Part shown: piece by piece, positions 23,223 through 58,839 of the stretch
How the letters are laid out: the number at the start of each line of letters is the position of its first letter
Numbering within the stretch: position 1 is the stretch's first letter
Source of the DNA: Candidatus Hermodarchaeota archaeon
GTDB taxonomy: Archaea; Asgardarchaeota; Lokiarchaeia; Sigyniarchaeales; SOKP01
Assembly (NCBI GenBank): GCA_048885525.1
Contig: JBHLLP010000006.1
Coordinates: forward strand, 51,247 to 115,246
DNA: 64,000 nt
Direction: 5' to 3'
The notes under the pieces: generated by a model
What the model saw: only the letters and a program-made list of their open reading frames with translations
Told to the model about the DNA's origin: nothing
The model's database searches: none
Made by a program: the position numbers and the translations under genes

Positions 23223-23675
23223 TCAGAATAACTTTAATAATGGTTTTATTTTCTCTTTTCCTTTATTATTCTTAATATATTCTAGAATTCTTTTGGATAA
23301 TTCCTTTTTTTTCTGAAAATAAGTTTTCATTATATCTTCTATAGAAGTCGTAGGATATCTTTCCAATAATGCAAGATCCCTTCTTGAACAGCCACCTTGT
23401 CGCATGCAACAATAGGAGAGGGAACCAAAACATACTAAATCAGAATCCCAATTATTTTCTTTGGAAAATTCATCTTTGATTTGAATAAATTCTTCTGGAT
23501 TAAGACCTAACTCATTTAATTTTTCATCTCTTTTACATTTAAAGCCAAATGTCAATGAATAACCTGGTTTACAACAAAATGCTAACGCACGATAATCTCC
23601 TCCCATACATATTGGTACAGGCGCATCCTTTTCCCATCCCGGAATATCTCTAATTCTACTTTCTTCTAACTTCAA
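23223..23675 (-). CDS. Methanogenesis marker 9 domain-like Cys-rich protein
   Basis: AP.PICMGGD.RALAFCCKP and CFGSLSYCC motifs. Confidence 0.75.
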   Translation of the reverse strand: MKLEESRIRDIPGWEKDAPVPICMGGDYRALAFCCKPGYSLTFGFKCKRDEKLNELGLNPEEFIQIKDEFSKENNWDSDLVCFGSLSYCCMRQGGCSRRDLALLERYPTTSIEDIMKTYFQKKKELSKRILEYIKNNKGKEKIKPLLKLF

Positions 23676-23744
23676 AGTAATCTCATTAATTTTAATTTGT
23701 ATAATAATTCGGCATAATTATGATAAGAGGGCTCGGTACGGGAA

Positions 23745-23774
23745 TTATCCCGCAAATAATATATTTTTTTGCGT
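23745..23774 (-). other. 30-nt BHB tRNA intron at position 58/59
   Basis: Central helix GUUC/GGAU, bulges AA|A and AA|U, inner hairpin CGCAAA/UUUGCG. Confidence 0.85.
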
Positions 23775-23786
23775 TTGAACCCGTCT

Positions 23787-23816
23787 TTCCCCAGTTGTAA
23801 GAAAATTCTCACACTT
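23787..23816 (-). other. 30-nt BHB tRNA intron at position 45/46
   Basis: Central helix CCCU/GGGG, bulges AG|A and AA|A, inner hairpin AGUGUGAGA/UCUUACAACU. Confidence 0.85.
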
Positions 23817-23916
23817 CTAGGGATTCACAGTCCCCAATACTAACCACTATACGAACCGAGCCAATGCTTTTTTTTTATAATAAATCTAAATGTTTGCTTA
23901 TAAAAAAATTTAATTA

Positions 23917-45405: not shown

Positions 45406-46830
45406 CTATAAATTTTTAAGTGCAATTTTCTCTAATTCCCTTGATAATCTTTCTTCAATAGGATGTATGGAGGATTTGCCCAATAATTTGGATGATTCTT
45501 CTTTAGCTCTTTTTCTAGCAGATTTAGAACCGCTTTGCTTCCATGAATCTCGTGTCATTCTATCTATTATAGGACTGGGGAGGAACAATTCTTTCCTAAA
45601 GTATTTCAAGGTTGATGGATGGGATAAAAGTTCTTCTTTCTCCTCATAGTCTTTTAATATTTCTGAAGCAAAGGGAGATCCATGATCTTCAATGCCTTGA
45701 ACTAATCTTTTGACCATCCCAACGATTTCATTATCAATAATTAATTTTTCAATACTTTGTGTTGATTCAAAATCCAGCATTCCGGGACCTGAAACCATAT
45801 TAATTCCTGCTAATCCTGCTAACAATGCTCCCATACCAGCTTCAAAACCAGCTTGACTATCAGGTACTTTAGAGTCGCTAAGCGACATATATGCATGAGT
45901 GGGCAAATTTAAGAACTTTCCCATCTCAATATCCCCTAGATTAATCATCATCGTTTCTATGGCGCCCATCGGAGTCGTTCCTGTTTTCATATCAAAAACA
46001 GCAGGAGATCCCCCCCAAATCAAAGGAGCACCTCGCTTGATTAACTGAACTATTACAATTCCTGCAAGACATTCGGCACAGTGTTGAGTAATCGATCCAA
46101 TCAATGTAATTGGAGCATTAGCTCCTGCTAAAGGCATTGAAACAAATTCAGAAGGGATCATGCTTTTCGCGGCATCGATCAATGATTGTGTAGTTAAATC
46201 CGACCATTTAAGAGGTGAGCTTGGACATGCATCAAAAATAGCTAGTGGTTTTCTAGCTAAATCTTCTTCAGATAATCTACATGCTAAAAGAATTTCTCTC
46301 ATAATCGAAAAACTCTCTTTACGAAATGTTCCCGTTACAACTGGTTTATAACAATTAGCTAAAGCTATATATAACCTATGCCAGTCTTGAGCTTCTTTTG
46401 GAACGTCTTGATAAATTAAAGCAGTACTTTGAGCATCTATATATTTTAATTGCTCAACAACTTTGGAAAATCTCATGAAATCATTGGACATTGCTTCACG
46501 AATATCTCCTGTTTCCTCATCAAGTATGAAAATTGCCGCTGATCCAGGATCAAAATTAACATTATCTCCCTTTAGGGAAATATGTTCATTACCATCTCGA
46601 TCATAAAGAGTAATTTCACTAGGAACTGTTTTTAGGCATTTGTCAATCAAATCTAAGGGTATAAAAAAACGTGAACCATCATGATTTATGCCATGTTGAT
46701 TAAACAAATTGATTGCTTCGTGATTTTCTATGAAAACTCCTTGAGTTTCGAGGATTGTTTTTGCTTCCTCTAATATCATTTTTTTATGGTCATTATCCAA
46801 TATGTCTATCTTTGGTCTAATAATTTGCAT
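45406..46830 (-). CDS. Trimethylamine methyltransferase (MttB superfamily), non-pyrrolysine
   Basis: SSPL, P.AGANAP.TL.G, SDSKVPD.QAG.E, GML; Leu at the Pyl-equivalent position. Confidence 0.85.
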   Translation of the reverse strand: MQIIRPKIDILDNDHKKMILEEAKTILETQGVFIENHEAINLFNQHGINHDGSRFFIPLDLIDKCLKTVPSEITLYDRDGNEHISLKGDNVNFDPGSAAIFILDEETGDIREAMSNDFMRFSKVVEQLKYIDAQSTALIYQDVPKEAQDWHRLYIALANCYKPVVTGTFRKESFSIMREILLACRLSEEDLARKPLAIFDACPSSPLKWSDLTTQSLIDAAKSMIPSEFVSMPLAGANAPITLIGSITQHCAECLAGIVIVQLIKRGAPLIWGGSPAVFDMKTGTTPMGAIETMMINLGDIEMGKFLNLPTHAYMSLSDSKVPDSQAGFEAGMGALLAGLAGINMVSGPGMLDFESTQSIEKLIIDNEIVGMVKRLVQGIEDHGSPFASEILKDYEEKEELLSHPSTLKYFRKELFLPSPIIDRMTRDSWKQSGSKSARKRAKEESSKLLGKSSIHPIEERLSRELEKIALKNL

Positions 46831-57270: not shown

Positions 57271-58839
57271 ATGAAACTAAAAGTAAAGACAATTAATTTT
57301 GAAACAGGAAATACTAAAGACGTAGTTTTAAATGATAAAGATGCTCAAGAATTAGGACAAAAAGCCGGAGAGCGGATTTATATAAAAAATGTAAAATCCA
57401 ATAATCTTAGAGATAAGTATTGGGTTGCGATAATACAAATAGATTACTCAGGTACTTTTGTAAAGCAGGGTGAAATTGGTATTTTTTCAGACATTGTTCG
57501 AGAAAAAAAAGGTTTAAAAGATGATACGATCCTTTCAATAAAACCAGCAGATCCTCCCGATTCATTTAGATTTATACAAAAAAAAATAAAAGGACAAAAA
57601 CTATCGAGTGAGGAAATTAACAGCATTATCTCAGATGCTGTTTCTGGATCCCTCTCACGGATAGATTTAGCTGCATTCATAACTGCTGTATCCATTAACG
57701 GGATGGATAATGAGGAGATGACCGCGTTAACATTATCAGAAACAAGGAGTGGCGAGATATTTTATTTCGGAATGGATGTCTATGATAAACATAGCACAAA
57801 AATTTACTTTTCGTAAATTTTGTTAAAAGGTGGCGTCCCTGGGAATAAGGTATCTCTGATTATTGTCCCAATTGTTGCTGCTGCTGGTTTAACAATTCCA
57901 AAATCTTCGACGAGAGCTATAACATCTCCATCAGGCACAGCAGATTCAATGGAAGTATTAGCACCTGTTGCTTTTACTCCAGAAGAGTTAAATAATATTG
58001 TATCTAAAGAGAATGCTTGCATAATATGGGGTGGAGCCCTTGAAACAGCCCCAGCAGATAATATATTAATAGAAATTGAGCGACCTTTGCATATGGATCC
58101 AATTGGGCTTATGATACCTTCTATTCTTACAAAAAAGCTTTCATTAGGAGTTAAAAAGTTAGTACTTGATATTCCCGTAGGTGAAGGCACAAAATTTCCA
58201 ACAGTTGATAAAGGAAAACAGTTTGCTTATTTATTTAAAGAAATTGCTGCGAATATTGGAATTGAAGCGGAATGTGCGCTTACTTTAGCTCATCAACCTA
58301 TAGGACATGCTATAGGTCCCGCCTTGGAAGCTAAAGAAGCTCTTAATTTATTATGTGATTATTCTGCAGGGCCAAACTCTTTAATAGAGAAGTCTACGGA
58401 CCTAGCTGGTATTCTACTTGAAATGGGTGGGAAAGCCCGAAAAGGTTCGGGTCAAGCTATGGCGAAAAATATATTACGCTCTGGTAAAGCTTATGAAAAA
58501 ATGAAAACGATTATTAAAGCCCAAGGTGGTAATCCAGAAATAAAACCAGAAGATATTAAATTAGGTCCATATATTAAGGAATTTTTTGCATCTAAAGATG
58601 GATATATAGTTGAAGTAAACAATTCAATAATAAATCGAATTGCAAAAACTGCTGGATGCCCTAGGTCGAAGACTTCTGGCGTTGAAATAATAAAAAAGCA
58701 AGGTGCTAAAATAACTGAGGGAGAATTAGTATTTAGGGTGTATTCGCATAGTGAATCTAAATTAAGAAAAGCAGAAAAAATCTATAATTCTACGGGAGGT
58801 CCAATCCGTCTTGGTGGAATGATGATAGAAAGAGTTTAA
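57271..58839 (+). CDS. deoA: AMP phosphorylase (thymidine phosphorylase family), intron-containing: join(57271..57797,57828..58839), 512 aa
   Basis: The two track ORFs share a frame; motifs DKHST|GGVPGNK, KSSTRAITSPSGTAD, SILTKK, DIPVG.GTK, IGPALEA. Confidence 0.9.
57798..57827 (+). other. 30-nt BHB-type intron in a protein-coding gene
   Basis: UAGC/GUUA central helix, AC|A and AA|A bulges, perfect 9-bp inner stem AAAAUUUAC/GUAAAUUUU; contains in-frame TAA at 57814-57816. Confidence 0.85.

Follow-up and report, generated by a model that had tools for sequence, protein, structure and literature searches.

Asgard archaea are the closest archaeal relatives of eukaryotes. Marck and Grosjean in 2003 and Sugahara in 2008 reportedly described tRNA genes with several introns in Thermoproteales/Crenarchaeota. 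Multiple BHB introns at non-canonical sites are classic for Thermoproteales, and 45/46 is one of the positions listed for them (PMC4090602). For Asgard archaea too, multi-intron tRNAs and the EndA type have already been published (PMC5829648, PMC11291895, 10.64898/2026.10.13.758758). In Atabeyarchaeia and Freyarchaeia, introns were found in 92-95% of the tRNA genes (2024, PMC11291895), and the October 2026 preprint of Goswami et al., for the families on which it focuses, gave 2.2 intervening sequences per gene (10.64898/2026.10.13.758758). That preprint also reported repeated gains, an enrichment of BHB motifs and a widespread (alpha-beta)2 EndA, with no arrival route identified; its text makes no mention of a Loki-type/Promethearchaeota lineage or of tRNA-His (10.64898/2026.10.13.758758).

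Here, we describe a locus in a 64,000-nucleotide stretch of archaeal DNA (the window) that is very probably the spliced, functional and single tRNA-His(GUG) gene of a Loki-type Asgard archaeon (Promethearchaeota). A first-pass annotation of this DNA had presented multiple introns as typical of Thermoproteales, where they are indeed classic, but the host is an Asgard archaeon and the kind has been published for that group as well.

Results

A tRNA-His gene with two interruptions

The minus strand of the window holds, at 23862-23730, a 133-nt tRNA-His(GUG) gene that is interrupted twice (Table 1). Its 5' end (GG-CUCGGU) and its 3' end (ACCGAGC-C) form a 7-bp acceptor stem plus G-1:C73, as in a tRNA-His gene. 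The G-1:C73 pair is the hallmark of tRNA-His, and G-1 is genome-encoded in archaea. CCA is not encoded at the 3' end of exon 3. The anticodon arm, GGGGA-CUGUGAA-UCCCU, has a 5-bp stem and a 7-nt loop with the anticodon GUG. It is uninterrupted, as is the D arm, which directly follows the acceptor strand. With the anticodon loop CUGUGAA unbroken in this genome, a canonical 37/38 intron was rejected, in agreement with the first-pass annotation, which had seen none. A split or permuted tRNA gene was rejected as well, the exons being all collinear within one 133-nt stretch.

Table 1. Features of the tRNA-His locus, its candidate BHB helices and two further features of the window (window positions)
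Feature	Coordinates	Strand	Description
Exon 1	23817..23862	-	46 nt: G-1, acceptor 5' strand, D arm, anticodon arm (GUG), variable nt 44-45
Intron 1	23787..23816	-	30 nt, 45/46 (variable loop): A, hairpin h', GGGG (H 3' strand), AA
Exon 2	23775..23786	-	12 nt: variable nt 46 and 48, T-stem 5' strand ACGGG, T-loop nt 54-58 UUCAA
Intron 2	23745..23774	-	30 nt, 58/59 (T loop): A, hairpin CGCAAA...UUUGCG, GGAU (H 3' strand), AA
Exon 3	23730..23744	-	T-loop nt 59-60 UU, T-stem 3' strand CCCGU, acceptor 3' strand, discriminator C73
Intron 1, candidate helix H			Exon C40-U43 (CCCU, anticodon stem) with intron GGGG; bulges AG↓A, AA↓A
Intron 1, candidate helices h' and h			h' = 3 + 6 bp (9 bp); outer helix h = single G-U pair
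Intron 2, candidate helix H			Exon G53-C56 (GUUC, T stem and loop) with intron GGAU; bulges AA↓A, AA↓U
Intron 2, candidate helices h' and h			h' = 6 bp, CGCAAA/UUUGCG; outer helix h = 2 bp
Cys-rich ORF	23223..23675	-	150 aa, conserved, directly downstream of tRNA-His; synteny marker, no part of the tRNA
AMP phosphorylase insert	57798..57827	+	30 nt, inside the KHSTGGVPG motif
PYLIS_3 match	45783..45881	-	Rfam, pyrrolysine insertion element of mttB; 42.1 bits, above the gathering score

Unspliced, the gene yielded no ARAGORN tRNA call anywhere in the window, and the Rfam tRNA model scored it at 18.8 bits against a cut-off of 29, in a wrong partial alignment. Splicing was simulated by the deletion of pre-tRNA nt 47-76 (23816-23787) and nt 89-118 (23774-23745). 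Both 30-nt deletions together gave a 73-nt product that ARAGORN called tRNA-His(gtg) and whose cloverleaf was complete in our own check too, with a variable loop AGAG (4 nt), a T stem ACGGG/CCCGU and a T loop UUCAAUU; after deletion of one intron alone, ARAGORN found no correct tRNA-His. These comparisons of the spliced with the unspliced and singly spliced forms bear out the earlier claim that a 73-nt tRNA-His(GUG) with G-1:C73 emerges only once two introns have been removed. The mature junctions are predicted to read CCCUAG-AGACGGG and UUCAA-UUCCCG, the second also in the longer form GGGUUCAA-UUCCCGU.

Junctions and conservation in orthologous loci

We searched relatives and scanned 185,579 species genomes for the exact pattern, which gave ~30 distinct loci that share exon 1. 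Every one of them lies in a MAG that bears the name Promethearchaeota or Promethearchaeia; examples are Loki_b32, ABR05/06 and two closed chromosomes, CP070831 and CP070805. Since the same Cys-rich 150-aa gene follows the tRNA-His at all ~30 loci, we consider them orthologous. Several lack one of the introns and thereby display the junction directly. In orthologues without intron 1 (L008, L010) it reads CCCTAGAGACGGG, and in those without intron 2 (L009, L011, L013-15) it reads GGGTTCAATTCCCGT, with the T loop UUCAAUU; both match the predicted product exactly.

The exons are far more conserved than the introns, 1 of 73 exon columns varying among 10 distinct two-intron orthologues versus 32 of 60 intron columns. 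The sole difference in exon 1 is one C/U site, and exon 2 is invariant in every aligned orthologue. G-1 facing C73, which makes an 8-bp acceptor stem, is kept in all tRNA-His orthologues. UGGGGA is invariant in all orthologues that have intron 1.

BHB geometry and the position of the cuts

We applied the standard BHB geometry, in which a 4-bp helix H lies between two 3-nt bulges and the cut falls between bulge nt 2 and 3. Both introns can adopt it (Table 1). The intron helix h' is strong in both. Intron 1 is a relaxed, HBh'-like motif rather than the strict hBHBh' form, because its outer helix h is nearly absent, with one G-U pair. In this geometry the cloverleaf must refold, as had been proposed before: helix H of intron 1 takes anticodon-stem nt 40-43 and that of intron 2 takes G53-C56, so that the H strands overlap the anticodon stem and the T arm. 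The first-pass annotation had further read UGGGGA in intron 1 as a copy of the 5' anticodon-stem strand that competes for its partner. The sequence is present, but it is the obligatory intron strand of helix H and not a special decoy.

Pairing was counted over 12 distinct sequences per intron. The BHB cells were paired in 92.9% of cases for intron 1 and 95.6% for intron 2, versus 39-69% when the partners were slid by 1-3 columns. Helix H of intron 1 is paired in 12/12 distinct sequences, and that of intron 2 in 100%, through the variants GGAU, GGAC, GAAC, GAAU and GGGC. Changes on both sides of a pair affect two pairs in intron 1 and three in intron 2, which are few events in 12 related sequences.

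The predicted energies favor other folds. In local folding, the MFE was -17.5 kcal/mol at intron 1, where the BHB reached -12.5, and -11.6 kcal/mol at intron 2, where the BHB reached -2.8; for the full precursor, the BHB conformer stood at -22.5 versus -38.8 kcal/mol for the cloverleaf with intron hairpins. The BHB conformers thus lie off the thermodynamic optimum, so that the motif would need co-transcriptional folding or the enzyme. Furthermore, BHB-like shapes arise by chance in this genome, at ~10,400 per intron length under loose rules and ~780 under strict rules, and the genome-wide search showed no excess of them at 30 nt. We rejected that search as a means of counting introns, since chance matches swamp the signal at 29.4% G+C. 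Because the shape is common by chance, it proves little by itself, and we place the weight on the junctions and on conservation.

The introns and the product implied by the sites 45/46 and 58/59, which the first-pass annotation had named, are confirmed by the orthologue junctions, and the exact bonds are chosen only by the BHB rule. By comparison alone, the A repeats at the borders allow two placements of intron 1, 45/46 and 46/47, which are 1 nt apart, and a 2-nt range for intron 2, from 56/57 to 58/59, with the product unchanged, and the labels 45/46 and 58/59 are used because the rule of a cut between bulge nt 2 and 3 alone selects them. It is unlikely, in our estimate, that the introns are instead removed at neighboring bonds (46/47; 56/57 or 57/58) or from a fold that is not a strict BHB, with the same product. 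Those border repeats make the bonds indistinguishable by comparison, and the local MFE at intron 1 of this genome is a 7-bp UCCCUAG/CUGGGGA helix rather than the BHB register; yet only 45/46 and 58/59 give a 4-bp helix, two 3-nt bulges and symmetric cuts. Moreover, under the compensatory A48-U70 to G-C change in intron 1 the BHB register stays intact and the competing one (A45-G46 with C69-U70) is lost, and in an L048-type orthologue the local MFE itself has the AGA bulge.

The only tRNA-His found in the genome

The genome assembly comprises 3.58 Mb, is 99.3% complete and has a G+C content of 29.4%. ARAGORN with introns, Rfam and BLAST with the gene found no second tRNA-His in it. A search for any His anticodon arm enclosed by the two strands of an 8-bp G-1...C73 acceptor stem gave 21 matches genome-wide, of which only this locus is tRNA-like. 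Finally, an acceptor-anchored census, in which BHB candidates were deleted and the cloverleaf was tested, recovered 22 tRNA loci, a lower bound and not a catalogue, with this locus as the one His; in it, mature nt 45 and nt 57 (nt 57 = Sprinzl 58) are the last ones before introns 1 and 2. The first-pass annotation had named another intact tRNA-His as grounds for doubt, and none was found in five ways of searching.

It is very improbable that two insertions have made this a decaying pseudogene and that a working tRNA-His lies unassembled or unrecognized elsewhere. The assembly is in 87 contigs and tRNA genes are easily missed here (ARAGORN and Rfam report only 24-34 tRNAs genome-wide, the census 22 loci), but the introns vary across at least 10 species in which the exons are near-invariant, the BHB pairing of the insertions is kept by compensatory change, CP070831 and CP070805, both closed chromosomes, have the same interrupted gene at this locus, and five independent searches found no second tRNA-His.

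The census also located 29-33-nt introns at non-canonical sites in tRNA-Val(UAC), Thr-GGU, Thr-CGU, Leu-GAG, Glu-CUC and Leu-UAG, and since other tRNAs carry such introns, the tRNA-His gene is typical of this genome. Genes that ARAGORN missed or mis-called reappear after deletion of 29-33-nt BHB inserts. The tRNA-Val(UAC) gene, at G000 C4:53220-53321 (+), has a 30-nt T-loop intron and lies directly after tRNA-Ser(GCU). At G000 C8:66342-66434 (-), both ARAGORN and Rfam call a tRNA-Sec(UCA).

Intron turnover among relatives

Over 30 syntenic tRNA-His loci, we found genes with no intron (2 loci), with a T-loop, a variable-loop or an anticodon-loop intron only, with various pairs and with three, the third being a D-arm intron. 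Nearly all introns at these loci are exactly 30 nt long. In the loci with an anticodon-loop intron only, it measures 26 or 30 nt and occupies two different sites. To account for the 12 intron patterns, a tree of the neighbor protein requires a minimum of 11-12 changes; this tree has 151 columns, is only partly resolved and was used for this minimum count only, not for the order of events. In blastn-short searches of the genome, neither His intron had a second copy, the hits being the full-length introns themselves and otherwise AT-rich runs of at most 18 nt, so that nothing here points to copy-and-paste spread.

Some relatives (L011, L013-15, L029, L036-42, L046, L047) have among them 2-3 different non-canonical anticodon-loop introns, of 26 nt after C32 and of 30 nt near 32-34; none of the anticodon-loop introns of the relatives' tRNA-His lies at 37/38. 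Relatives with anticodon-loop introns lack one or both introns of the window gene. L007/L026, L028 and L045 carry a 30-nt D-arm intron after GGUUAG, with a perfect 7-bp hairpin and one mismatch in H (GGUU versus GCUU); it is of the kind of relaxed D-arm introns that annotators were reported to miss (10.64898/2026.10.13.758758). L001, L002 and L030 share an identical or almost identical intron 2, 11-nt loop included, with a clearly diverged neighboring protein; this would mean either constraint on the whole of intron 2 or an exchange of the tRNA gene between lineages.

Splicing enzymes

Two EndA paralogues are encoded in the genome. EndA alpha (G000 C2, 198 aa) matches the catalytic A. pernix EndA chain (3P1Z_B) over its full length (E 8e-36). 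The Tyr/His/Lys triad is intact in it, and the loop region aligns free of gaps, with Lys56 opposite Lys44 of the A. pernix CSL (L1 loop). EndA beta (C9, 205 aa) has a Ser at the catalytic His position, and because of this replacement we regard it as the structural subunit. The CSL Lys is the residue credited with broad substrate specificity, and an (alpha-beta)2 EndA with the L1 loop is already known for Asgard archaea (PMC5829648). The RtcB ligase is present and intact (570 bits).

The genome thus appears to encode the broad-specificity type of EndA, (alpha-beta)2 with a CSL/L1 lysine, from which we infer a relaxed specificity. The first-pass annotation had postulated a relaxed-specificity endonuclease and suggested that its subunit type and specificity loop be inspected; the (alpha-beta)2 composition and the equivalence of Lys56 to A. 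pernix Lys44 support it, at the level of sequence.

Discussion

We infer that cleavage and ligation occur, at the bonds named above and by these enzymes. The gene would be transcribed as a precursor of ~133 nt with two 30-nt introns, each of which would provide a 4-nt strand (GGGG; GGAU) that pairs with the neighboring exon (CCCU; GUUC) as the central helix of a BHB, bordered by two 3-nt bulges and the intron hairpin. A heterotetrameric (alpha-beta)2 EndA would then cut in each bulge, the CSL (L1) loop lysine of its catalytic subunit permitting non-canonical and relaxed motifs. RtcB would join the three exons into a product that folds as the usual cloverleaf, with G-1:C73 as its His identity pair. 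On this reading of the sequence, the organism must run a splicing system for non-canonical, relaxed BHB motifs with refolding of the substrate. The annotation also fills a gap, since the genome would otherwise be without a tRNA-His and standard finders miss the gene.

A protein gene of the same genome carries a comparable insert. Within the AMP phosphorylase gene, it runs from AC↓A through a 9-bp hairpin and a GUUA strand, the partner of exon UAGC, to AA↓A. It shares with both tRNA-His introns the layout NN↓A, hairpin, 4-nt H strand, AA↓N, and the length of 30 nt, which supports the reading of this insert as an mRNA intron. The tRNA-His and mRNA introns are presumably handled by the same splicing machinery. 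A bolder idea, which we consider possible but doubtful, is that the ~30-nt BHB introns of tRNA-His and of mRNAs form one length-stereotyped class that is still inserted and lost by a sequence-independent mechanism. The tRNA-His gene has five insertion sites across one genus and at least 11 gains or losses over the 30 syntenic loci. Were there such a class of elements, the filled and empty alleles of the tRNA-His locus would form a natural series in which the insertion mechanism could be read. The one-genus series itself (0, 1, 2 and 3 introns; five sites) is a compact set for the study of intron gain and loss.

Elsewhere in the window, the PYLIS_3 match (Table 1) suggests that this Asgard genome has a gene for a trimethylamine methyltransferase with Pyl.

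Among known systems, the Thermoproteales and Crenarchaeota likewise have 2-3 BHB introns per gene at non-canonical sites and an (alpha-beta)2 EndA with the CSL lysine, but they belong to another phylum. The site 58/59 seen here is absent from the published list of positions, which has 56/57 and 59/60 and then ends with "etc." (PMC4090602). Transposition of introns between tRNAs has been inferred in Thermoproteales, whereas the His introns have no near-identical copies in the genome. EndA alpha resembles the (alpha-beta)2 EndA of A. pernix (PDB 3P1Z, 3AJV) in the triad and in the CSL lysine. The BHB intron of the cbf5 pre-mRNA in Crenarchaeota lies in a coding sequence, whereas the tRNA-His here is an ordinary tRNA substrate.

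The closest likeness is with the Asgard tRNA introns already described, which, like those of this gene, occur several per gene and at non-canonical sites including the T arm, have BHB motifs and are missed by standard finders; they too have been gained repeatedly among close relatives, on the permissive background of an (alpha-beta)2 EndA. The tRNA-His gene is thus of a kind already known for Asgard archaea and is not surprising to specialists. The published work has focused on Atabeyarchaeia, Freyrarchaeaceae and Jordiarchaeaceae, with a median intron length of 22-23 nt, whereas the present locus belongs to a Promethearchaeota (Loki-type) genus, and the introns seen here are stereotyped at ~30 nt.
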